From NCBI GenBank assembly GCA_021787475.1, contig JAJYLW010000002.1, positions 56,249 through 120,248 on the forward strand: a stretch of 64,000 nucleotides of DNA, given 5' to 3'. Shown in pieces: positions 1 through 48,213 of the stretch (positions within the stretch are counted from its first letter, which is position 1; every line of letters begins with the position of its first letter). The translations under genes were made by a program, and so were the position numbers. This DNA is from Actinomycetes bacterium. GTDB lineage: Bacteria; Actinomycetota; Thermoleophilia; BMS3ABIN01. The notes below the pieces were generated by a model, which ran no database searches, was not told the origin of the DNA, and worked only from the letters and a program-made list of their open reading frames with translations.

Positions 1-2
1 GG

Positions 3-965
3 ATAGTCAAATACCGAGGTGTCGAGTATCCGGGTCTGCATGAGCCGATCGTGGAACCGGCCCAGTTCGAAAGGGTCCGGCAGATGCTAAGAAGCCGCGA
101 TCAGGCCGGTGAGCGAAAGCGGAAACATCCTCATTACCTGAAAGGCACCGTCTTCTGCGCCGAGTGTGGTTCCAGGCTCTCATTTCTCATTGCTAAGGGT
201 AAGTATCCCTACTTCTACTGCCTGGGACAGAAAAAGCACAACGGCTGCTCTCAGAAATACGTGGATGCAGACTGGGTGGAAAAGAAAATCGAGAATCTGT
301 ACAGAGACATCCAGCTTCCGCTAGAGACAGTCCAGAAACTAAAGAAGATCATGGAAAAGGAAATCGTCAATCAGCAAGCGTCGTCAATTCTTCAAAGGAA
401 ACGGCTTATCAAAAAGATCGAGGAGCTGAATGACAAGAGATACAAACTGGTTGAAGCATATATGGCAGGAGCTATTCTTATCGATATCTTAAAAGGCGAG
501 CAAGAAAGACTGGTCAATGAAATCGGACTAGCCGAGGATCAGCTCAAAGTGATCGACGGAAAACACGAGAACGTTCAGGAGTTACTGGAAATGGCAATCA
601 AGCTTGCCGGCAACTGCCACAAGGCATATTTAAAGGCCGAGGGCGATAACCGGCGGCTGATGAATCAATCATTCTTCAAGAAAATCTTCATCGGTGAAAA
701 GGGCCGGAAAATGAAAGAGCCGGAATACACCGACCTCTTCCGTGATATTTTCTCAGACGATGGTTTGAATAAGTCAAATCTGGTCGGGGTGGGCGGATTT
801 GAACCGCCGACCTCACGGTCCCGAACCGTGCGCTCTACCAAGCTGAGCCACACCCCGAAAAACAGACTGCGTATGGTGGATGGTGGATACTGGATAAACC
901 CAAAAGCAAAGCCCCAAACCAAAACTCGAAAAAGCCAATACTGGATTCTGGCCGACCACGTCTAA
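3..965 (+). CDS. Large serine recombinase, C-terminal portion (N-terminus lies upstream of the window)
   Basis: The frame is open from the window edge. Translation shows a recombinase-domain motif YRGVEYPGLHEPIVEPAQFERVQ, a zinc-ribbon CAECGSRLSF...YFYCLG...HNGC and a long coiled-coil tail. The 3' end is uncertain because the ORF reads antisense through the tRNA-Pro gene before its stop at 963-965. Confidence 0.7.
   Translation: MVKYRGVEYPGLHEPIVEPAQFERVRQMLRSRDQAGERKRKHPHYLKGTVFCAECGSRLSFLIAKGKYPYFYCLGQKKHNGCSQKYVDADWVEKKIENLYRDIQLPLETVQKLKKIMEKEIVNQQASSILQRKRLIKKIEELNDKRYKLVEAYMAGAILIDILKGEQERLVNEIGLAEDQLKVIDGKHENVQELLEMAIKLAGNCHKAYLKAEGDNRRLMNQSFFKKIFIGEKGRKMKEPEYTDLFRDIFSDDGLNKSNLVGVGGFEPPTSRSRTVRSTKLSHTPKNRLRMVDGGYWINPKAKPQTKTRKSQYWILADHV
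781..857 (-). tRNA. tRNA-Pro (anticodon CGG)
   Basis: Reverse complement folds as a canonical cloverleaf. The acceptor stem is CGGGGTG/CACCCCG, the anticodon loop is TTCGGGA, the T-loop is TTCAAAT and the 3' CCA is encoded. Confidence 0.9.
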
Positions 966-3297: not shown

Positions 3298-4371
3298 TTG
3301 GAGCAGTTGTCTGCAATCATTGATTCTTCTGACGACGCAATTTTCGCAAAATCGCTTGACGGAATAATAACAAGCTGGAACCACGGCGCCGAGCTGCTTT
3401 ACGGCTATAAACCGGATGAAATCATCGGCATGCCGGTTTCAATCCTTCTCCCTTCTGACAGAACGAATGAAATTAAAGACATTTTAAAACAGATTGCCGC
3501 CGGCAAGCGCATAGATCATTTCGAGACCAAACGCGTCATCAAAGGCGGCCACATTGTTGATATTTCCCTGACGGTGTCTCCAGTCAAGGATGAAGGCGGC
3601 AAGATCATTGGCGCCTCCTCAATCGCGCGGGATATCAGCGCCCAGAAGCGCTTAGATGAAATACTCAAGCAAACCATGGACGAGCTGAAAGCCTCAAACC
3701 GCGAGCTGGAGCAGTTTGCCTATGTCGCTTCGCACGATCTTCAGGAGCCGCTCCGGCTGGTGGCAAGTTATGTGCAATTGCTTGAGCAGCGGTATCAAAG
3801 CCTGTTTGATGAGCAGGCGCGCAAATACATGGATTATATCGTTAGCGGCGCAAAAAGAATGCAGACGCTGATTAATGATCTGCTCGCATGTTCGCGCGTC
3901 GGCACAATGGGCAAGGAGCTCAAGCCCGTGAGCGCCAGCAAGGCACTGGAGTACGCGCTCGGCAATCTCGAAATGAGCATCAGCCAGAGCGGCGGCAAGG
4001 TGACAAGCAAACAATTGCCGACGGTAATGGGTGACGGCGTTCAGCTGACGCAGTTGTTTCAAAACCTGATCGGCAACGCAATCAAATTTCATAGCGAGAA
4101 ACCGGCTCAGGTCGAAATCGCCGCCGATGATGCAGGCATGAGCTGGCAGTTCTCCATCAAAGACAACGGCATCGGCATCGATATGAAATACGCCGACAGA
4201 ATCTTCACGATCTTTCAGAGGCTGCACGAGAGAAGCAAGTACAAGGGAACAGGCATTGGACTGGCGATAGCGAAAAGAATTGTCGAGAGGCATCATGGCC
4301 AAATCTGGTTCGAGTCAGAGCCAGGCAAAGGCACAACATTCTTTTTTACATTGCCCAAAGTAAAGGAGTGA
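3298..4371 (+). CDS. PAS-domain sensor histidine kinase (HisKA + HATPase_c)
   Basis: An N-terminal PAS domain, an H-box [18 protein letters not shown], and the N, G1 and G2 boxes ([25 protein letters not shown]). TTG start. Confidence 0.85.
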
Positions 4372-4375
4372 CACA

Positions 4376-4825
4376 ATGGACCCGTTTACCCAAGCAAGGC
4401 CGGCGCATATCCTGCTGGTTGAGGATAATCCCGGCGATATTGACCTGACAAAAGAGGCGCTGAAGGACTGCAAGCTGGCCAACAAATTAAGCACGGTACT
4501 GGACGGTGAACAGGCAATGGCCTTCTTGAGAAAAGAAGGTGATTACGCAGACGTTGACCGGCCGGACCTGATTCTGCTGGATCTCAACCTTCCCCGCAAG
4601 GGTGGCCAGGAAGTTCTGGCTGAAGTCAGGGCGGATGAGTCATTAAAACTGATCCCTATCGTCATCCTCACTGCTTCTAAAGCAGAAAAGGATATTGTCC
4701 AGAGTTACGACCTGAAATGCAACTGTTACGTTACCAAGCCTATTGATTTCGATCAATTCAAGCAGGTCGTTGAGGCTATTGACGAATTTTGGTTTTCGAT
4801 CGTAAAGCTGCCGCCGACGCTCTGA
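4376..4825 (+). CDS. Stand-alone response-regulator receiver domain protein
   Basis: 149 aa CheY-like protein: [20 protein letters not shown] in YVTKP. It lies 4 nt downstream of the kinase. Confidence 0.85.
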
Positions 4826-4848
4826 CATTCCCCGGAACGAATATGACC

Positions 4849-4906
4849 AAGAACATTTATCCAAATGGTATAAATGTTCTTCCGACCAGTTTATTTTTTC
4901 TTCTCT
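4849..4906 (+). terminator. Intrinsic terminator after the kinase-receiver operon
   Basis: A perfect 12-bp inverted repeat AAGAACATTTAT / ATAAATGTTCTT with a 9-nt loop, followed by TTTATTTTTTCTTCT. Confidence 0.7.
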
Positions 4907-5087
4907 GCGAACAAAACTCCTGACAGTCGCTAAGGCGTCCCGCTTAATGATTCAATAACATCTTGCTGATTCGTCGCTGGTTCCTGGCAGCTATTGTTTA
5001 ATTTGCTCACTGCGGTCATAATGATAAAATTATTTACTATCTTTATCTTCAAATAAAAAATGATTTCTGACCGCATAATCCATTCGA

Positions 5088-6587
5088 TTGAGCCATATTG
5101 TTAACAAAAATGCTGTCATCAAAATATTGCTGATCGAGGATAATCCCGGCGACAGCAGGCTGCTTACCGATATGCTGGCTGATGCCAAGGAAGCTTCTTT
5201 CCAGTTCAAATGCGCGACCAGTTTGAGCGATGCCCTCGATCTCACGGAAAATAACAACTTCGATCTCGTTATAACCGACCTTGGACTGCCCGATAGCCAG
5301 GGGGCCATTACCTTCGAAACGCTCGAGTCCCACCTGCCGCAAACTCCCATTGTCATCATGACCGGGTTCGATGACGAGTTCCTGGCCGCGGACCTGATCG
5401 AAAAACACGCCCAGGAATATATCATCAAGGGCGACTTGGACTCACGCCAACTGATCCGCACCCTGCTTCATGCCATTCAGCGCAAGCGCTCTGAGGAATC
5501 AGAAGCACGCCTGGCAGCACTGGTCAGGGCTACCGGCGACGCAATCATCGGTATTTCTCCCGCAGGCAAGATTACCAACTGGAACCCCGGCGCCGAGGAA
5601 ATGTTCGGCTTTAACAAGAAAGAGGCAATCGGCAACACATTAGACATGATCTCACCCTATGGCTTGGAAGCAAAAATCAATGACGTGAAAGCTTGCAGTT
5701 CCCAGGCATCACTCCGTTTCGAAACATCCTGTCATCGAAAACAAGGCAATCAGATTGATGTCTCAATGATAGTCTCGCCCGTTAAAACCGCCACTGGCCT
5801 TCTTCTGGGAGCCGCGATCATAGCCCACGATATTACCGACAGGGTTTTGGAGGAAAATAAAGTCAGGTTTGTCGCTGACACGCTTCAATCTGCTCTTTTG
5901 TCAAAAAAGCCTGCATTGGACGGAGTCGATTTGGGCGTCGCCTATCAACCTCTGGATGCCAGCGGAGCCCACGTTGGCGGAGATTTCTACGATTTTATCC
6001 GGATTGGCCCGGGCACGACAGCAATAGCCATCGGAGATGTCAGCGGCAAGGGCATTAAAACCGCAACGACGATGGCGGCGGTCAAATACATGCTAAGAGC
6101 GCTCGTTGATTCGGCGCGAGGCCCGGAAGACAGCCTGGAAGAATTAAACCGGCCCCTCTACAGGGATGTTTCCGATGAATCGTTCATCACGGTCGGACTG
6201 GGGTATCTTGATCTCAAACAGAAGACGTTTTGGTACGCTTCCGCGGGCCATCCGCGACCGATTGTCTGCCGCGGGAACCGGGGGTGCGCCCCGCTTAACA
6301 TGTTGCCCTCCCGCCCGCTTTGCACCGAACCTGAGTCTGTTTTTTGGTCTCAGCAATTTGAACTGCGCGGTATTGACGCAATCGTTCTATACACGGATGG
6401 AGTATCCGAGCATCGCGATAAGTCAGGGCGGTTTTTTGGCGAGCAAGGCATCTGTACGGCAATTTCCGCCGCCCCAAATTTGCCGGCGCAGGAATTGGCG
6501 GAGCATATTCTGAATGAGGCAACCTCCTTTTCCGGCGGCAGAACAACTGACGACATGGCCATGATCACGATCAAGCCAATTGAATGA
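5088..6587 (+). CDS. Response regulator with REC-PAS-PP2C (SpoIIE/RsbU-like serine phosphatase) architecture
   Basis: N-terminal receiver (ILLIEDNPGD...ITDLGLP), a central PAS domain, and a C-terminal PP2C with GGDFYDF and GDVSGKG motifs. TTG start. Confidence 0.8.
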   Translation: MSHIVNKNAVIKILLIEDNPGDSRLLTDMLADAKEASFQFKCATSLSDALDLTENNNFDLVITDLGLPDSQGAITFETLESHLPQTPIVIMTGFDDEFLAADLIEKHAQEYIIKGDLDSRQLIRTLLHAIQRKRSEESEARLAALVRATGDAIIGISPAGKITNWNPGAEEMFGFNKKEAIGNTLDMISPYGLEAKINDVKACSSQASLRFETSCHRKQGNQIDVSMIVSPVKTATGLLLGAAIIAHDITDRVLEENKVRFVADTLQSALLSKKPALDGVDLGVAYQPLDASGAHVGGDFYDFIRIGPGTTAIAIGDVSGKGIKTATTMAAVKYMLRALVDSARGPEDSLEELNRPLYRDVSDESFITVGLGYLDLKQKTFWYASAGHPRPIVCRGNRGCAPLNMLPSRPLCTEPESVFWSQQFELRGIDAIVLYTDGVSEHRDKSGRFFGEQGICTAISAAPNLPAQELAEHILNEATSFSGGRTTDDMAMITIKPIE

Positions 6588-6812: not shown

Positions 6813-8876
6813 ATGCCCAAAAGAAGCCAGGCCCAGCTAAAGAAACCCAAAAGCAAAACCAAAAAAGCAACAAAAAACCCTGGCGAAAACAGGCTGTCTC
6901 AGCTGGAGCATCAGGAGTTGCTGGCTTCGATTGTCTCCTCGTCTGAAGACGCCATCATCGGCAAGACCATCAGCGGCACGATCACCACCTGGAACAAGGG
7001 CGCCGAGCTGCTCTACGGATATACGGAAAGGGAAATTGTTGGCAAGCCTATTTCCGTCATCGTTGCTCCTGACAAGGAGGACGAGATGCCTACAGTTCTG
7101 GCCAGGCTGGCGGCGGGAGACAGGGTAGATCATTACGAGACCCAGCGCGTCCGCAAGGATGGATCGCTCATCGACATCTCCCTGACCGTTTCCCCAATCA
7201 AAGACGCCGACGGACAAATTATCGGCGCCGCGACGATTGCCCGCGATATCACATCCCAGAAACAAGCTGCTCATTACGCCCGCTCGCTGATCGAAGCCAG
7301 TCCGGACCCGCTGGTTACCATTAGTCCTGGAGGCAAGATCACCGACGTCAATGAAGCCTCAGTGAATGCGACAGGCGTTCCCCGGGAGAATCTTATCGGC
7401 ACAGACTTCTCCAACTACTTCACCGAGCCGGAAAAAGCGCGCGAAGGCTACCAGCAGGTATTTGCCGAAGGATCAGTGGCTGACTATCCACTGACTATCC
7501 GCCACTGCGACGGAAATCTGATGGAAGTGCTTTACAACGCATCGGTTTACCGCGATACCGAAGGCAATGTCCTGGGCTTATTCGCCGCCGCCCGCGATAT
7601 CACCGCCTAAAAACAAGCGGAAAAAGTAGCCCAACAAAGATCAAAGGAGTTGGTCAGGCTGGCCGAACTGGAGCAGTTCCAGAAACTTACCGTCGGGCGC
7701 GAGCTGAAGATGATCGAGCTAAAACAGCAGATACATGAACTGAAACATCGTCTTGGCGAAGGCCTGAATGAAGAGATAGCAGATGAGTTTAACGATAGCG
7801 CTACTTGGTGATTCTGGTGATTAACGCCTAACGCGAACTGATCGAGCTTCAATGGGACAATTATTAAATCAACCCAACCCCCCCCCTTTTTTTTTCCGGC
7901 AGATGAACAGCGCTGAAATTAATCGCCCCGGTGAGAAATCCCACCCGGGTCTGGAAAGTGAACTGCAGGAAAAGATCGCCTACCTGGAAAAAACCCAGCT
8001 TGCAACCTTGAACATTCTCGAGGACTTAAACGCAGAAAGACAGAAGCTTGAGAATTACCAGCGGGCCACGATCAATATCCTCGAAGATTTCAACCTGGAG
8101 AAGGAGCGGGCAGAAATCGCGAACGTTGAGATTCGCGCCCGGACCGAGCAGTTAAAGCTGACAAACGCAGAATTAGAGCAATTTGCATACGTCGCTTCGC
8201 ATGACTTGCAAGAGCCGCTGAGAATGGTGGCCAGCTATGTTCAACTGCTCGAAAGAAAGTACAAGGACCAACTTGACGATGATGCCCGCGATTTCATTCA
8301 TTTCGCATCAGACGGCGCCAACCGCATGCGCGTCACGGTCAAGGATCTTCTCAAGTATTCGCGGGTCGGCACCACAGAAGAGCACCTTGAAAAATCAGCA
8401 CAGAGACGGCTTTAAAACAGGCGCTTGTCAATCTCAAGTTATCCATTATGGAACAGAACGCAACCGTCACCAATGACAGGCTGCCTGACATCATCGCCGA
8501 TTTTCCTCAGATATCCCAACTTTTCCAAAACCTGGTGGGCAACGCCATCAAGTTCCGCCGCCAGCAAATAGAACCACATATACATATCTCAGCAACCAGA
8601 CAAAAAAGGAATGGCTGTTTTCTGTAAAAGACAATGGCATAGGCATTGAAGAATCGTATTTCGAGCGGATCTTTATCATCTTTCAACGGATGCATGCATA
8701 TGAGGAATTTGGCGGAACAGGCATCGGCCTGGCAATCTGCAAGAGAATTGTCGATCGACACGGTGGCAAGATCTGGCTGGAATCGGAGCCGGGGGAAGGC
8801 AGCATTTTTTATTTCACAATTCCTCTCCAGCCGGCCGAAAAATTAATTCTGGCAAATGATAAATGATTTAACAATA
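6813..8876 (+). pseudogene. Disrupted PAS-PAS-coiled-coil-histidine kinase (paralog of 3298..4371)
   Basis: Two PAS domains read cleanly to an in-frame TAA (7608-7610) inside the conserved DIT-x-KQAE motif. The open frame continues through a coiled-coil to 7811. After a C9T9 tract, the H-box [16 protein letters not shown] and the HATPase motifs lie in three different frames. 1-nt deletions at about 8406 and at the A6 run 8593-8598 would restore them. Confidence 0.55.
7878..7895 (+). repeat. Homopolymer tract C9T9
   Basis: AACCCAA-CCCCCCCCC-TTTTTTTTT-CCGG read directly. It sits at the 5' end of the kinase-domain reading frame. Confidence 0.9.
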
Positions 8877-9310
8877 ATGACTGATCGGCATAAAATAAAT
8901 GTTTTATTTTGCGAAGACAATCACGGGGATATTCGGCTTGCCCGCGAGGTCATGGAAGAAACTGGAATTCAGGTCATTTTAAATACAGTCAGAAACGGGG
9001 AAGAAACGATGGCCTACCTGCGCCAGCAGAAAACTACCAGAACAATGTGCGCCCTGATTTGATCATATTGGATTTGAACATGCCCAGGAAAGATGGCCGC
9101 GAAGTGCTGAGGGAGATAAAAGACGATCCGGACCTGAAGCGAATACCGGTAATTGTGCTAACTGCCTCCGAAGCTGAGCAAGATATAAACATGTGTTATG
9201 ACATGCATGCAAGCTGCGTTATCAACAAGCCGGTAAATTACGTGGAGTCGCTGGAGAACATAAAGTCAATCGAGCAATTTTGGTTCCGTACCGTCAAACT
9301 GCCCACTTGA
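8856..9310 (+). pseudogene. Receiver-domain response regulator (paralog of 4376..4825) with a -1 frameshift
   Basis: The N-terminal half (VLFCEDNHGDIRLAREVM...AYLRQQ) and the C-terminal half (RPDLIILDLNMPRKDGREVL...VIVLTASEAEQD...EQFWFRTVKLPT) are in different frames. They join at CAGCAGAAAAC (9027-9034). Confidence 0.5.
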
Positions 9311-10543
9311 CTTCTGATCTGCCAGCGCGAGCAACTGCAAAAACCAAAGCATTACCAAACCCCAACTGCCCGGGTGCGCCCACCAACCCCAGCTCTCCAT
9401 ATCGAAAAAGTTCCAAACCCGCCAGTAGTCAACCTCAACCAGCATGAAAGAGATCGCGGTCAGCGTCAGCATCAGTTTCCGGCCGCCGGTGACATGATCC
9501 ACCTGCGGCTGCGTCAAAAACAACAAGACCAATAAAAATGGAATCAGCAGGACGACAAGATGGTGCGTAAATAAAATAGTCTGCATAATCAAAAAGTCTG
9601 TGATCAGCAATCCAAACAGCAGCAGGCTCTCCGACTTCTTCGCCCGGCGATATTTCCGGAGAAAATAAACCGTCGGGGTCCCAATTCCGGCCGCAAGGAA
9701 AAATTCGCATGCTTTTAAGACCCCCGTCCCCGGAAGGCCGGTAGCCCGCGCCAACAAAGCGGGAATGGCCATATTGACCCAGTAATGTAGCTCTCTCGCA
9801 GAGTGGCTCAACAGCGCGCCCGGCAGATGCAGATCCAGGAGCTTGCCAAAATACGCCCAGGAGATTATCTCCAGGGAAAGAATCGTCGCCAGCCCGCCCA
9901 GAAGCGCAAGCCATTGCTTTCGGACTAGAAAATAGGCAAAGAGCAGCACCGGTGTCAGCTTCACCATCGTCGCCAGCCCCAGTGATGCGCCGGCAACTGC
10001 GTCGTGGCGATGAACGGTTGAATAAAGGCAGGCGCACAAGAAGAAAAGAACCAAAATATTGGCTTGATTAATGACCATGTTTGACCAGATAGGTGTGAAC
10101 AAAAGTGTAACTATTATCAAATACGATATTGGCAATAAACTGCCGGCCTCTTTTTTAAACGTGCGCCAGAGGAGAAACACCGACCCTCCCAACGCCAGGT
10201 AGCTTACGGACAAGAATATCTTGTGCGCCACCGGCAGGGAAAAAACAAGCAACGGCTGCAGGAAAACAAGAAAGGGGGAAGGATAAAGATATTCGTTCAG
10301 CCCCGTGCTAATGCCCAAGCGGACCAGCTCGGCGGCCACCGCCTGGCGCTCGAACGGATTCAGCCCGTGGGCCGCCGCCCGCGCCGAAGCGTAATAAATG
10401 CTGAAGTCAGTGAAATATTCGCGGAAAGGGAAATAGACGGCCTCGTGAATAAACGCAAAGGCAGCCAATAGAACCACTGCAGAAATAACTGTTAACTTTC
10501 CTTTACGATAACAGAGGCCTGGCCTGGCGGAATTGAACTTCAT
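9266..10543 (-). CDS. Polytopic membrane protein, DUF2029/GT87-like putative mannosyltransferase (GT-C fold)
   Basis: 425 aa with more than 10 predicted transmembrane helices and loop motifs typical of this family. No database comparison was possible. Confidence 0.5.
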   Translation of the reverse strand: MKFNSARPGLCYRKGKLTVISAVVLLAAFAFIHEAVYFPFREYFTDFSIYYASARAAAHGLNPFERQAVAAELVRLGISTGLNEYLYPSPFLVFLQPLLVFSLPVAHKIFLSVSYLALGGSVFLLWRTFKKEAGSLLPISYLIIVTLLFTPIWSNMVINQANILVLFFLCACLYSTVHRHDAVAGASLGLATMVKLTPVLLFAYFLVRKQWLALLGGLATILSLEIISWAYFGKLLDLHLPGALLSHSARELHYWVNMAIPALLARATGLPGTGVLKACEFFLAAGIGTPTVYFLRKYRRAKKSESLLLFGLLITDFLIMQTILFTHHLVVLLIPFLLVLLFLTQPQVDHVTGGRKLMLTLTAISFMLVEVDYWRVWNFFDMESWGWWAHPGSWGLVMLWFLQLLALADQKSSGQFDGTEPKLLD

Positions 10544-10552
10544 TGCATCATC

Positions 10553-12220
10553 TCACTTGCGCACAAACAGGAAGAGCATATCACCTGGGAAGTCCCACTT
10601 ATCAACCAGACGCCAGTTTATTTCCAGCGCCTGCAGCCGTTCAGCGGTGGCGGGACTGCTGCCATCACTGTTGTCAGAGTCAACCAGCCAGACGCGGTTA
10701 AAACCAGAAACATCCTCATTGATGCGCTTGTTTGCCTGTGATGTAGAAAACAACTGCAGGCCGCTGCCGGTAAAATAGCCGGACCGGTAACCATCCCAGG
10801 GCACACCCTTCGCAGCAAAAAAAATCGAATCGGTATCGGTGGCCGGGAATCCCCCAGTCAGGGGCATTGGCTTTGACAGGTAAAAACTGGCCGCCACCGC
10901 GCACTCGTGCAAAGGAAAACAATAAAGCAGATCGTTTTGCCCCCGGTTGTGGGAAACGGTTGCCATCAGGGCGCGCCAGTTGCCGACTCTATTGTCATCA
11001 AACTTGAGTTCTATGGCGGTTAACCCCAGAAGCACCGCCAGCAGCGTCATGCCAGCCAGCGCGGCTGAGCGGCGCCGCGCGGCGTCCAAGGCCGCCCCCG
11101 CCAGAACCAGTAGCGGCGGCGCCGCCCACAGGTAAAAGCGCGCTGCCAGGGGACGACCCATCGCCACATCCGCAATTATTGGACCAATCAGCAATAAAAA
11201 GGCAAGTATGGCCAGGGCGGCAGCTTCCTTGCCGATGAGCCGGTGGCGAACGTGCCTGGAGTAAAAAACTATTGCCAAAGCTGCAGCCGCCGCGGCAGAC
11301 GCCATCAAAAAAACAACCGGCCCGGGAAGGCTCAAAACCGAACCGCCGTAATTAAGGTCATTAACCATCCAGTCGCCGCCGGTAAAGACCACGGTAACCT
11401 GAAGCAGCCCTTTCACGATCAGATCAGGGTGCGGCCACGAAAAAACAAGCCAGTGCCTGGCAAGCTTCGCCCGACCTGTCAGCGAGATAGCCAAAGCCAC
11501 GGCAATGAGCCCTGCCTGGCCAGTGAGCCACCACCTGCCCCCCCGCTTGCTGCTCCGTTCTCGAACCAGCCAATAAAGTGGCCAGCCCGCTACAATCAGG
11601 ATTGGACCCAGGTAGTATGTCAGGCAGACGGCGGCGCCGGTCAGCATGTATCCGCACCAACTGAAAAGCCCGCCCCGTTTGGCGCTGCGGACCAGCAGCC
11701 AGAGAAAAGCCACAGACAGAAAAACAAGCCACGAATACGATGTACCCTGGCGCGAATACCAGACAAGCACTGGGGAAAAGGCCGCCAATGCCGCAGCCCA
11801 CATACCTGTGCCGCTATCAAAAAGTTCCTTGCCAGCCAGATAAACAATGCCAATTGTCGCAACTCCCGCCGCCCATGACAGCATCCTCACCCCGACATCT
11901 CCGGAGGCCACAGCAAACCAGAAATGCCCCAAAAGGTAATACAGGGGCGGATGTCCGGACGCGGCCGCTTCGCTGATAACAGACCTGATCCCCAGCTTTG
12001 AGGCCCAGACAGTATACAGCTCGTCGTACCACAGGCCGCGGCCGTCCAGCCAGGCGATGCGAATCAGCGCCCCTGCCGCAAGAATAAAAGCCAGGACAAA
12101 AGGCGCCGATGTCATCTTGCTGCGGAAACCACTTTTTAGCTTATAAACAAAAGTTGACATTGACAGATGGTTATCAGAATTTAATTGCATGCCTGCAACA
12201 TTCAACTGACAGGATTTCAT
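10553..12220 (-). CDS. PMT/ArnT-family (GT39/GT83-like) membrane glycosyltransferase
   Basis: 555 aa polytopic N-terminal domain containing WLDGRGLWYDELYT and an HPPLYYLL-type motif, plus a soluble C-terminal domain. Confidence 0.6.
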   Translation of the reverse strand: MKSCQLNVAGMQLNSDNHLSMSTFVYKLKSGFRSKMTSAPFVLAFILAAGALIRIAWLDGRGLWYDELYTVWASKLGIRSVISEAAASGHPPLYYLLGHFWFAVASGDVGVRMLSWAAGVATIGIVYLAGKELFDSGTGMWAAALAAFSPVLVWYSRQGTSYSWLVFLSVAFLWLLVRSAKRGGLFSWCGYMLTGAAVCLTYYLGPILIVAGWPLYWLVRERSSKRGGRWWLTGQAGLIAVALAISLTGRAKLARHWLVFSWPHPDLIVKGLLQVTVVFTGGDWMVNDLNYGGSVLSLPGPVVFLMASAAAAAALAIVFYSRHVRHRLIGKEAAALAILAFLLLIGPIIADVAMGRPLAARFYLWAAPPLLVLAGAALDAARRRSAALAGMTLLAVLLGLTAIELKFDDNRVGNWRALMATVSHNRGQNDLLYCFPLHECAVAASFYLSKPMPLTGGFPATDTDSIFFAAKGVPWDGYRSGYFTGSGLQLFSTSQANKRINEDVSGFNRVWLVDSDNSDGSSPATAERLQALEINWRLVDKWDFPGDMLFLFVRK

Positions 12221-12251
12221 GTCGGTTCACAGAATATCAGATTAGTCTGCA

Positions 12252-13232
12252 ATGCCATCAATTCTTTATCGAGGAACAAACCTGCAATCATCAACGGCGG
12301 AAAACAGTGCGGCGGTAATTGCCTGCCGCAGCCTGACGAAGTACTACGGCCCTCAGCCGGGAATTAGCGATCTTGATCTTTCCGTGGCCGCCGGCGAGAT
12401 TTTTGGGTTCCTCGGTCCAAATGGCGCCGGCAAAACAACCACGATTCGCCTGCTCATGGGCATGCTGAGGCCAACTTCCGGCCTGGCGGCTATCCTTGGC
12501 TATGATGCCTGGAAGAAGTCAACAGAGATAAAGCGGCACATCGGTCACATTCCCGGCGATGTCAGACTTTATGAACACATGCGGGTAGGAGAGCTGCTTG
12601 ACTACATCGACGGATTCCGCGCAAGCACGGGAAGGCTGCGGGCAGAGCTGCTGGAGCGGCTCGAGCTGGCCGCTCACAAAAATGTCAAATCGCTCTCCCG
12701 CGGCAACAGGCAGAAAGTTGCCATTGTGCTGGCGGTGATGCACGACCCCGACATCCTCATTCTTGATGAGCCCACCCTTGGGCTCGACCCCCTCATGCAG
12801 CAGGCATTTTACACTATTCTGTTGGAGCTGAAGCAGCGGGGCAAGACTGTGTTTCTTTCTTCCCATATCCTCTCCGAAGTCGAGCGCGTCTGCGACCGGG
12901 TCGGCATCGTCAAGGATGGACGCTTGATTGAAGTACAGGCGATCGAGGCATTGAGGCAGAATAAGATCCGTCATATGGATGTCACCTTCGCGAAAGAGGT
13001 CAATTTTGAGGAGCTGAGGCGCTTGCCTCAGGTGCTGGAAGTGCAAAAACATGACAACGTGCTCCGAATTACGCTGCGCGGCGATATCGACGCCATTATC
13101 AAGGAGCTTGCCCGCCACCGGATCGTTGACCTGACTTTTGCCCAGCCCAGTCTGGAGGACTTTTTCCTCAGCTTTTACGGCGCCAGTCGAAAAAATGACA
13201 CAAATAACCAATCTGCTAAAAAGAACATTTAA
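12252..13232 (+). CDS. ABC transporter ATP-binding protein
   Basis: Walker A GPNGAGKTTT, signature LSRGNRQK and Walker B ILILDEP. Confidence 0.85.
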   Translation: MPSILYRGTNLQSSTAENSAAVIACRSLTKYYGPQPGISDLDLSVAAGEIFGFLGPNGAGKTTTIRLLMGMLRPTSGLAAILGYDAWKKSTEIKRHIGHIPGDVRLYEHMRVGELLDYIDGFRASTGRLRAELLERLELAAHKNVKSLSRGNRQKVAIVLAVMHDPDILILDEPTLGLDPLMQQAFYTILLELKQRGKTVFLSSHILSEVERVCDRVGIVKDGRLIEVQAIEALRQNKIRHMDVTFAKEVNFEELRRLPQVLEVQKHDNVLRITLRGDIDAIIKELARHRIVDLTFAQPSLEDFFLSFYGASRKNDTNNQSAKKNI

Positions 13233-13998
13233 AGACCGCCGCACGTCACTGGTCATCTACGCAGCCGGGCTGGCTGCTTACTCTGTTTTTATCCTCGCCA
13301 TCTGGCCTTCGATAAAAAACGCCCAGCTTCAGCAACTCTGGCAAAGTTACCCGCCAGCATTAAAGAAGGCGTTTGGCGCGAATATCGATCTGGCCGCCTT
13401 TGATGGTTTTTTCACGCTTGAATACTTTGGCCAGTTGTGGCCGCTGATTTTGATAGCCTTTAGCGTTGGGTTTGCCTCTGCCAGCCTTGGCGGGGAAATC
13501 GAAAAAGGAACGATGGAGTTGCTGCTCTCCCAGCCGGTCAGACGGCGCTCGGTTGTCCTGGGGAAATATTTATTTTTCCTGCTGGCGCTGGCCGCCTTGA
13601 TTATTGCCACGCTCATCCCTGTTGTGCTGGGCGCTCCGATTGCCGGAGGCCGCGTCGGCATTACCGGCGTCGCTGCCCTCGGCTTGCAGGCATTCCTGTT
13701 TTTTGCCGCGGTGGGCTCTTACAGCATCTTTTCCGCCGCTCTCTTCAGCACACGGTCGCGGGCAATTTTTGCCTCTGTGGCGGTCGCGATAATTTCATAT
13801 GCTCTGGATATACTGGCAAAATTAAATAATTTTGTCAGCAACTTTCACTTTCTGTCACTTTTTTATTATTACGACCCCTTCCGCTATCTGCACTCAGCAT
13901 CCTATGCCTGGGGTGATTTGACAGTGCTGACGGCAATTTCCCTCTTCTCGTTGACGGCGGCCGTCCTCTGGTTTAACCATCGTGATATTGCCTGCTGA
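13195..13998 (+). CDS. ABC-2 type transporter permease
   Basis: Six hydrophobic segments. It is co-oriented with and overlaps the ATPase gene. The ATG at 13195 was chosen over the upstream in-frame extension. Confidence 0.65.
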   Translation: MTQITNLLKRTFKDRRTSLVIYAAGLAAYSVFILAIWPSIKNAQLQQLWQSYPPALKKAFGANIDLAAFDGFFTLEYFGQLWPLILIAFSVGFASASLGGEIEKGTMELLLSQPVRRRSVVLGKYLFFLLALAALIIATLIPVVLGAPIAGGRVGITGVAALGLQAFLFFAAVGSYSIFSAALFSTRSRAIFASVAVAIISYALDILAKLNNFVSNFHFLSLFYYYDPFRYLHSASYAWGDLTVLTAISLFSLTAAVLWFNHRDIAC

Positions 13999-14209
13999 AG
14001 CAAAAACATGGGGCCGGAAATTTAAGCGAAGCCGAATTTGGAACTTTGCTGGCGGATTGTTAAAATTGAGCCTGCCAACTCAGGTTATTGCGTTTTTCGT
14101 TTGGAATTACCTGTTCTTGATTTTCAGGCTTTAGATTTTTGTTTCCAGATTGCTTTTGTTTTTGGTTTTATCCAAAATCCAAGGTCTAGCATCCAATATC
14201 TAGTTTTAC

Positions 14210-14285
14210 GGCGCATTCGTCTAGTGGCCTAGGACGCCGGCCTCTCACGCCGGTAGCAGGGGTTCAAATCCCCTATGCGCTACCA
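14210..14285 (+). tRNA. tRNA-Glu (anticodon CTC)
   Basis: Cloverleaf with acceptor stem GGCGCAT/ATGCGCT, anticodon loop CTCTCAC, T-arm AGGGG-TTCAAAT-CCCCT, and CCA encoded. Confidence 0.85.
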
Positions 14286-24599: not shown

Positions 24600-24722
<123 letters not shown>

Positions 24723-24737
24723 GTATGTTTCAGTCGG

Positions 24738-47888: not shown

Positions 47889-48151
47889 CTAAGCCACGCC
47901 TCCAAAATAAAGCTCCACCCTGCCGTGTCCGCCCATTTATTGAACCTGCTCCAGCAGGTGGGTGCCCGCTCCCCAGCTACCCTCAGATAGCGGGAGAAGA
48001 CAAAGCTCCCGTACACAATATGTTGGCTCAATAAAGTTGCAGATCACGCACAAGGTCGAGCAAGACAATACTATCACACGCCCTTATTCTTCGGCAACAG
48101 GAAAACAAAACCTTCAAAAACAATGCCGGCCTTCCTGCGCCCGGATCCCGG

Positions 48152-48213
48152 CAAGCCCCTCGCATCATTTTTTTTTTTTTTTTTTTATTATTCTGAGTGA
48201 AGAGGATGTTCAG
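48152..48213. repeat. Intergenic repeat, type B, copy 3, containing a T19 homopolymer
   Basis: CAAGCCCCTCGCATCA + T19 (48168-48186) + ATTATT-CTGA-GTGAAGAGGATGT-TCAG. Confidence 0.6.

Follow-up and report, generated by a model that had tools for sequence, protein, structure and literature searches.

The described two-component systems closest to the locus analysed here are Cph1/Rcp1 and the bacteriophytochrome-type pairs (COG4251 together with Rcp receivers), which it resembles in the kinase core and in the adjacency of the kinase and receiver genes. In contrast to these systems, the locus has no PAS-GAF-PHY photosensory module; its sensor is a separate PAS-only polypeptide, the N-terminus of its kinase is made of coiled-coil LNILED repeats, and its genes are probably inactivated. 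Nonsense mutation and homopolymer slippage commonly give rise to pseudogenes in lineages that have changed niche recently or are under relaxed selection, Mycobacterium leprae, Yersinia pestis and Shigella among them. Homopolymer tracts also underlie the phase-variable contingency genes of Neisseria, Haemophilus, Campylobacter and Helicobacter, and in the known phase-variation switches the tracts are about 8 bases long or longer.

The locus lies at positions 6813–9310 of the 64-kb stretch of DNA analysed as a whole (hereafter the window). We read it as a three-gene two-component signalling operon, composed of a cytoplasmic sensor (gene A), a kinase (gene B) and a response regulator (gene C), whose function was probably lost recently in this lineage (probability of about 0.85). 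Every one of the three genes contains at least one disabling mutation, namely a nonsense codon in the sensor, two deletions in the kinase and one deletion in the receiver. The features are listed in Table 1.

Table 1. Positions of the genes, lesions and neighbouring features in the window.
Feature	Position	Strand	Evidence or effect
Gene A, probable pseudogene: PAS-PAS sensor with conserved C-terminal coiled-coil tail	6813..7811	+	Two PAS domains (Pfam); ortholog; homologs
Premature TAA, CAA-to-TAA nonsense substitution	7608..7610	+	CAA in ortholog; removes conserved 67-aa tail
Coding sequence of the conserved tail, orphaned but in frame with gene A	7611..7811	+	Frame-0 translation KQAEKVAQQRSKELVRLAELEQFQKLTVGRELKMIELKQQIHELKHRLGEGL...
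Intergenic spacer between sensor and kinase, 91 nt	7812..7902	+	Several frame-0 stops
C9T9 double homopolymer in kinase leader	7878..7895	+	Direct sequence; also in Logan contig L005
Gene B, probable pseudogene: stand-alone histidine kinase with HisKA, HATPase_c and two LNILED repeats	7903..8866	+	Pfam on repaired protein
Frameshift 1: 1-nt deletion in A-run (A5 now, A6 inferred)	8390..8394	+	Frame 1 to 0
Frameshift 2: 1-nt deletion in A-run (A6 now, A7 inferred), inside HATPase_c	8602..8607	+	Frame 0 to 2
Gene C, probable pseudogene: response regulator of the single-domain Rcp1/RcpA type	8856..9310	+	Response_reg after repair; RcpA match
Frameshift 3: 1-nt deletion in A-run (A4 now, A5 inferred), inside Response_reg	9030..9033	+	Frame 0 to 2
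Intact older paralogous pair: PAS-HisKA-HATPase kinase (3298-4371) and receiver (4376-4825)	3298..4825	+	Pfam

The initial annotation had treated the sensor and the kinase as a single PAS-PAS-kinase gene. One fused gene broken at the C9T9 tract was rejected, with several frame-0 stops between 7811 and 7878, and the fused model is also ruled out by the ortholog and by distant homologs, in which the sensor and the kinase are separate genes. The spacer between them measures 66-108 nt in the ortholog L007, depending on the choice of start codon, and 95 nt in L009. In L009, L014 and L016 as well, a PAS-tail gene precedes an LNILED kinase, and the same order is found in L007. An apparently split kinase in L015 is an N-gap within the repeat array and not biology. 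In the annotation of the contig, 6813-9310 should be entered as three pseudogenes, not as five or six short ORFs.

The C9T9 tract had been placed at the junction of the sensor and kinase halves. The tract itself is present where it was reported, though not at a domain junction: it is intergenic and precedes the start codon of the kinase by 8-25 nt, that is, at -25 to -8 from the ATG at 7903, the usual place of a ribosome-binding site. At the same place the ortholog reads ACCCCTCCAGAAAAAAATGAAC. A first-order Markov model predicts about 1e-4 adjacent X9Y9 homopolymer pairs per 64 kb. The tract may represent a lineage-specific expansion in the untranslated leader of the kinase.

Gene A encodes 332 aa if the stop is read through and 265 aa as truncated. 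Both PAS domains are complete and lie upstream of the TAA according to Pfam. Direct reading of the sequence bears out the reported TAA, which is in frame after ...AARDITA, where the ortholog has GCC CAA AGA CAG and the window GCC TAA AAA CAA. A Gln stands at this position in L009 and in 10 of the 12 fetched homologs, as ARDVTAQ[KR]. These 12 PAS-only homologs, which come from many phyla, all carry the ...RLAELE.FQKLTVGRELKMIELK tail at their end, and the tail orphaned in the window matches those of L007, L009 and other homologs. The ortholog of gene A (L007, 125-1108) is an intact protein of 327 aa with 82% amino acid identity and a dN/dS of 0.085 in the comparison with gene A. This value is lower than those of the neighbouring GT87 and PMT_2 genes (about 0.21), while dN/dS against the ortholog was not computable for the kinase and the receiver, for which dS is saturated.

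Once repaired, gene B encodes a protein of 321 aa, with 69% identity to its ortholog P0001 (370 aa). Kinase homologs are stand-alone proteins of 300-460 aa that contain HisKA and HATPase_c only, without PAS. Pfam identifies HisKA (1.7e-9) and HATPase_c (3.2e-28, covering 4-110 of the 111 model positions) in the repaired protein, and the features of a class I kinase can be seen, with the H-box His in HisKA and the N, G1, F and G2 boxes in HATPase_c; GTGIGLAI is one of the visible motifs. Its matches in the PDB are 8f71 and the kinase modules of bacteriophytochromes (E of about 1e-32 to 1e-46). Two deletions break the reading frame. One had been located near 8406; a 1-nt deletion does exist, but it falls in the A5 run between HisKA and HATPase_c, and the stop to which it leads is at 8413-8415. 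The repaired reading aligns without gaps to the ortholog at ESVDTEAALLQAL. For the other, an A6-run deletion repaired by A7 had been described correctly except for its coordinates, which had been given as 8593-8598, and its repaired reading is likewise gap-free against the ortholog at HISVRKQKLAWQFSVEDKG. The window kinase has 2 LNILED repeats, compared with 5-6 in the ortholog. This short array was not counted as a fifth lesion, with natural homologs of about 300-320 aa in existence. At the DNA level, the LNILED repeats were undetected by Tandem Repeats Finder.

Gene C encodes 151 aa after repair, and its ortholog is intact with 155 aa. Response_reg then covers 1-106 of the 111 model positions, and the domain is intact only with the A-run repaired. 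RcpA (1k68) matches residues 15-151 at E = 3.7e-41 and Rcp1 matches at 3e-38. The conserved receiver residues (acidic pocket, phospho-acceptor Asp, Thr and Lys) are found in EDN, in ILDLNMP (Asp), in LTAS (Thr) and in NKP (Lys). The deletion previously reported at 9027-9034 is present, as the A4 run falls inside that range, and after repair the spacing from this site to PDLIILD equals that of the ortholog.

A comparison with a related genome, as suggested in the initial annotation, found the orthologous locus intact. In L007, a Thermoleophilia MAG, the sensor, kinase and receiver genes are followed in synteny by GT87 and PMT_2 on the opposite strand. The three ORFs are intact (327, 370 and 155 aa), and adding back one base per site at the three deletions brings the frames of the window into exact match with theirs. 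Conservation of the same breaks in orthologs had been named as a sign of programmed frameshifting; L007 has none of them. Searches for an intact or alternative allele within the species found none. In JGI metagenomes, patterns built on the TAA site (with Y as its first base) and on the A6 run (A6 or A7 allowed) had 0 matches each, a scan of genome contigs anchored on GT87 recovered the L007 genome alone, and a protein search with the tail region gave nothing above 81% identity.

The broken genes had also been described as a duplicate of the intact pair at 3298-4825. This was overstated: amino acid identity to that pair is 55% for PAS1, 51% for the kinase core and 44% for the receiver, and the identical H-box is a family-wide motif. 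A recent tandem duplication fails on the same identities of 44-55% and on the differing domain architecture. The neighbouring kinase has its PAS fused, without LNILED repeats and without a separate tail-bearing sensor, and the pair is an old, differently built paralog. The proposed redundancy of the broken genes with this old pair is not borne out.

The lesions are very probably real and not sequencing errors: the Logan assembly, a second haplotype, the intact ORFs elsewhere in the window with their 8-base runs and a Fisher test all agree. The Logan assembly of SRR13170411 (L005) is 100% identical to the window over 7691-14235, including the three frameshifts and the C9T9 tract. The ENA contig L013, from a different assembly with a MEGAHIT-style name and 2 SNPs apart, carries the same receiver A4 frameshift, and the support from a distinct haplotype concerns this receiver deletion only. 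About 30 other ORFs of the window give full-length Pfam matches, and DnaG, GlyS and HisS are intact despite T8, T8 and C8 runs. Homopolymer runs are hit in 3 of 37 cases within the locus and in 0 of 908 elsewhere (Fisher p = 5.5e-5, a post hoc test). Only the 160-kb contig (NCBI and ENA) includes the TAA, which falls between the breaks of the Logan contigs at 7019 and 7691; an exact look-up in Logan of the predicted middle contig (6990-7610) found nothing on record. That the three A-run deletions are homopolymer under-calls in genes that are really intact is improbable. All three indels do remove 1 nt from a run of A, as is typical of platforms prone to homopolymer errors; a paper search for SRR13170411 returned nothing on its platform. 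Logan and the MAG probably derive from one run and share reads, which makes them independent assemblies and not independent data. However, the k-mer based assembly independently yields the identical sequence, and the other haplotype shares the receiver deletion. In addition, essential genes stay in frame across 8-base runs whereas the runs shifted here are only A4-A6, the TAA is a substitution and not a length error, and four lesions fall within 2.5 kb as against none in the other 61 kb.

The truncated 265-aa PAS-PAS protein could still be made and act, for instance via the neighbouring intact kinase, with only the kinase and the receiver dead. The two complete PAS domains, the good Shine-Dalgarno sequence that gene A retains (AAGGAG, 7 nt before the ATG at 6813) and the very low dN/dS of gene A would fit such partial survival, yet we consider it unlikely: the removed tail is nearly invariant across phyla, which implies that it is essential for the function of the family, and the low dN/dS mostly reflects the history before the lesion. 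A slippage-prone contingency locus, which the initial annotation had offered beside recent pseudogenisation, is very improbable. In its full form, this reading would make the C9T9 tract at the ribosome-binding place of the kinase a hypermutable switch built of two homopolymers, its host being an uncultured bacterium of soil or sediment, similar to Thermoleophilia, and slippage at the tract and at the A-runs would turn the kinase and the receiver on and off within the population, with the A-run frameshifts as its states. To our knowledge, no two-component system of Thermoleophilia-like bacteria has been described as phase-variable. The strong improbability of the C9T9 tract by chance, its exact position in the translation-initiation leader and the location of every frameshift at a mononucleotide run speak for such a switch, whereas a TAA nonsense codon cannot revert by slippage, runs of A4-A6 are too short in comparison with known switch tracts, and three simultaneous off states in two genes need three coincident reversions. 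Neither the breaks nor the C9T9 tract occur in the ortholog, and the tract lengths are equal in both assemblies, which probably share reads. Programmed recoding is extremely unlikely. It would yield a full-length product by stop read-through combined, at the A-runs, with either transcriptional slippage or -1 ribosomal frameshifting. The needed shift is always -1 and on a Lys AAA codon, and this AAA is preceded by A at 2 of the 3 sites, where tRNA-Lys could re-pair in the -1 frame; but none of the three sites has a canonical X XXY YYZ heptamer in register with the incoming frame (T GAA AAA; A CAA AAA AGG; G CAG AAA ACT). No shift is needed for the ortholog to encode the same proteins, which implies that the sites have not been conserved as recoding signals; with two successive low-efficiency shifts in one gene, the amount of product would be negligible; and a TAA followed by A, as here, terminates translation efficiently.

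Collectively, the locus at 6813-9310 is most likely a case of ordinary recent pseudogenisation, as had been proposed. The syntenic ortholog is intact, the frameshifts recur across assemblies, the lesions interrupt the conserved tail, the kinase, HATPase_c and Response_reg, full-length matches are obtained only after repair, and the other tested genes of the window are intact. The inactivation appears recent because the catalytic motifs (H, N, G1, F and G2 of the kinase; Asp, Thr and Lys of the receiver) are undamaged and the dN/dS of the sensor is low, a dating drawn from sequence comparison. The pathway may no longer have been needed, or a first hit may have relaxed selection on all three genes, after which ordinary replication-slippage deletions and a transition would have accumulated. 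The sensor normally may couple to the kinase via its tail and the LNILED repeats, as the conserved pairing of the two genes suggests.

The finding on its own matters little, as a further case of a signalling operon in a MAG that was probably inactivated not long ago. The window can also be seen as a natural knock-out of a widespread and apparently unstudied module, the PAS-only tail sensor with the LNILED kinase, and this module is of more interest than the pseudogenes for the question of how a histidine kinase is coupled to a sensor that is a separate protein. Thalassotalea fusca is one organism with intact copies of the module. We found no solved structure and no open-access paper for the FQKLTVGRELKMIELK tail or the LNILED motif. 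The repaired genes A and B are typical members of the family in which PAS-only proteins with the ...RLAELE.FQKLTVGRELKMIELK tail are paired with LNILED kinases, except that the window kinase has only its two repeats and is probably disabled. Gene C is like Rcp1 and RcpA, including the FW..VKLP end at its C-terminus. Compared with the contingency genes of the Neisseria and Haemophilus type, the locus is alike in its long homopolymer by a start codon and in shifts at mononucleotide runs; it differs in the length of the shifted runs (4-6 nt), in its nonsense substitution, in a tract that is absent from the ortholog, and in showing no length variation between the two window assemblies. With bacterial pseudogenes it shares several independent lesions in linked genes, indels in mononucleotide runs, an intact ortholog and well-conserved remaining sequence. 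Unlike decay of the Mycobacterium leprae type, the case is isolated in an otherwise intact 64-kb stretch, in which no genome-wide decay is evident.

The region 6813-9310, taken in the initial annotation for one broken PAS-PAS-kinase with a receiver, comprises three separate genes, namely a PAS-PAS sensor (gene A), a stand-alone histidine kinase with LNILED repeats (gene B) and an Rcp-type receiver (gene C), since both the homologs and a syntenic ortholog keep these proteins apart. A protein search with repaired gene B returned thousands of stand-alone kinases of ~300-460 aa, which hold only HisKA and HATPase_c domains behind N-terminal 21-aa LNILED repeats, and repaired gene A returned PAS-only proteins. 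All 12 fetched gene A homologs, from many phyla, end in the conserved tail ...ARDVTAQ[KR]QAE..AEQR.KEL.RLAELE.FQKLTVGRELKMIELK.EI, located within ~8-25 residues of the stop. P0001, the best gene B match at 69% identity, is encoded on contig JACWAM010000098.1 from L007, a MAG labelled 'Thermoleophilia bacterium', where the neighboring GT87 and PMT_2 genes run opposite to the locus, as they do in the window. In this related genome the sensor (327 aa), kinase (370 aa) and receiver (155 aa) are all intact.

All three window genes are broken, each by one or more lesions. Direct reading, together with translation in three frames, confirmed the in-frame TAA after ...FAAARDITA, and the coding signal drops back one frame at three places, as reported initially. 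The first deletion is real but does not lie near 8406; the A6 run of the second exists, though not at 8593-8598; and the receiver deletion, assigned to 9027-9034, was narrowed to an A4 run. Adding one A per site yields full-length Pfam matches to HisKA, HATPase_c and Response_reg. Gene A aligns to L007 with ~79% nucleotide identity, reading GCC TAA AAA CAA against GCC CAA AGA CAG at the stop site; the CAA opposite the TAA marks the stop as a C-to-T nonsense substitution, and the lost Gln is present in most family members. All three frameshift sites align gap-free to L007 once one base is restored, so that single-base deletions are the parsimonious reading.

Coordinates of features in the window and of the gene pair elsewhere
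Feature	Position	Strand	Remark
Gene A, PAS-PAS sensor	6813-7811	+	homolog and ortholog comparison
Premature stop TAA	7608-7610	+	in-frame, gene A
A-B spacer, 91 nt	after 7811, before 7903	+
C9T9 tract	7878-7895
Gene B, stand-alone kinase	7903-8866	+	homolog and ortholog comparison
Frameshift 1, A5 run	8390-8394	+	gene B, stop at 8413-8415; repaired EKISTETAL, L007 ESVDTEAAL
Frameshift 2, A6 run	8602-8607	+	gene B; repaired, 19 residues; L007 HISVRKQKLAWQFSVEDKG
Gene C, receiver	8856-9310	+	homolog and ortholog comparison
Frameshift 3, A4 run	9030-9033	+	gene C; repaired, 10 residues, ...YLR to PDLIILD; L007, 10 residues, ...YFR to PELIILD
TPP riboswitch	24612-24730	-	Rfam, 67.5 bits
6S RNA	47908-48064	-	Rfam, 75 bits
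PAS-tail + LNILED kinase pair, window	6813-8866
Same pair, L007	125-2329
Same pair, L009	3524-7173
Same pair, L014	4001-7334
Same pair, L016	4001-7074

We favor the view that a three-gene signalling operon has recently undergone a real and ordinary pseudogenisation (probability about 0.85), one of the two readings first proposed, given the intact syntenic locus, the reproduced frameshifts and the undamaged motifs. Gene B keeps its H, N, G1, F and G2 boxes undamaged, and gene C its acidic pocket, phospho-acceptor Asp, Thr and Lys. Gene A shows a dN/dS of 0.085 against L007, below the ~0.21 of the intact GT87 and PMT_2 neighbors (synonymous sites of genes B and C are saturated). These features suggest that the decay is recent compared with the divergence from L007. 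It is improbable that the locus partly survives through the 265-aa truncated PAS-PAS product, which might keep some activity but lacks the almost invariant tail.

Miscalled A-run deletions in genes that are really intact are somewhat less probable still. A separate Logan k-mer assembly of SRR13170411 contains a 6,545-bp contig (L005) 100% identical to 7691-14235, including C9T9 and all three frameshifts, although it probably derives from the same reads as the MAG. The 852-bp contig L013, taken from another ENA assembly (ERZ27233560), has two SNPs relative to the window (9260 and 9289) and yet carries the A4 frameshift; the receiver lesion is thus common to two haplotypes and is older than their split. 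Thirty other window ORFs, among them ThiC, DnaG, GlyQ/GlyS, AlaS, AspS, HisS, PyrG, RpoD and PPDK, have end-to-end Pfam matches, and several intact ORFs contain 8-base homopolymers called in frame, where a platform miscalling A4-A6 runs should err worse. Homopolymer runs are hit in 3/37 cases within the locus versus 0/908 elsewhere (Fisher p = 5.5e-5, post hoc). The TAA is a substitution rather than a length error, but appears only in the 160-kb contig to which the window belongs (DAHWTX010000002.1, 160,754 bp, GCA_027331575.1) because the Logan contigs end at 7019 and resume at 7691. These breaks (7019/7020 and 7690/7691), which fall inside gene A and leave the TAA region uncovered, may reflect strain-level branching, as the second haplotype exists, or shared PAS k-mers. 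Programmed -1 frameshifting to full-length products is hardly credible, as none of the three sites has an X XXY YYZ heptamer in register and L007 needs no shift to encode the same proteins.

The C9T9 tract is present, not at a sensor/kinase domain junction as first described but in the A-B spacer, 8-25 nt upstream of the gene B ATG, the expected ribosome-binding site position. No Shine-Dalgarno sequence precedes this ATG in the window or L007; in L007, AAGGAG precedes an in-frame TTG 42 nt downstream of the kinase ATG. The tract's low chance expectation (~1e-4 per 64 kb) and its place in the translation-initiation leader would suit a contingency locus switched by slippage, the other initial proposal. 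We regard this as very unlikely, since slippage cannot revert the TAA, a run of 4-6 A does not make a hypermutable site, three such runs would have to revert simultaneously, and L007 has neither the breaks nor C9T9. C9T9 itself stands out as the one oddity; it might just as well have arisen by neutral slippage expansion from a C-rich and A-rich leader like the ACCCCTCCAGAAAAAAATGAAC (CCCCTCC-AG-A7) of L007. The longest window homopolymer is a T19 tract at 48168-48186; read on the minus strand it is A19, with the aspartyl-tRNA synthetase stop codon 66 nt before it and the 6S RNA gene ~104 nt after it.

The dead operon was thought to duplicate the intact pair at 3298-4825, but their kinship is at the family level only (amino acid identity 55% for PAS1, 51% for the kinase core and 44% for the receiver), and the near-identical H-box is common to the whole family. 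The intact pair differs in architecture, with PAS fused to the kinase and no LNILED repeats; redundancy between the two is possible. Directly upstream, 3298-6587 encodes the intact PAS-kinase, an Rcp-type receiver and a receiver-PAS-SpoIIE (PP2C phosphatase) protein, forming a signalling gene cluster with the dead operon. At window 1-965, an ORF for a large serine recombinase runs with its 3' end across tRNA-Pro (781-857, minus strand), and a resolvase, an HTH protein, an RHH/PIN pair and an IS110 transposase lie upstream in the contig (L001 1-5878); the arrangement suggests a mobile element that inserted at tRNA-Pro. The TPP riboswitch precedes a thiamine operon (Thi4, DUF6775, ThiE, ThiC, ThiL-like, ThiD).

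The order of PAS-tail gene and LNILED kinase, usually followed by a receiver, recurs in GCA_040961345.1 (L009), Thalassotalea fusca (L014) and a Gemmatimonadota MAG (L016). The tail of the PAS-only partner is nearly invariant (...RLAELE.FQKLTVGRELKMIELK), PAS repeats share 55-67% identity across phyla, and the LNILED repeats are kept despite a different kinase core subtype (L016) or an extra PAS domain (L014). A split LNILED kinase in one Gemmatimonadota assembly (L015 5695-7166; compare L016 5695-7074) was rejected, as it is only an N run in near-identical 63-nt repeats; such arrays are hard for assemblers to resolve. Sequence search gave no PDB match to the tail or the LNILED repeats, and no mention of either motif was found in the open-access literature searched. 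The gene pair is apparently widespread and unstudied, and makes a more promising lead than the dead operon. The kinase core and receiver of the window operon are of the bacteriophytochrome/Cph1-Rcp1 type, but the operon lacks a phytochrome sensor and has instead a separate PAS-tail sensor and a kinase N-terminus of LNILED repeats.
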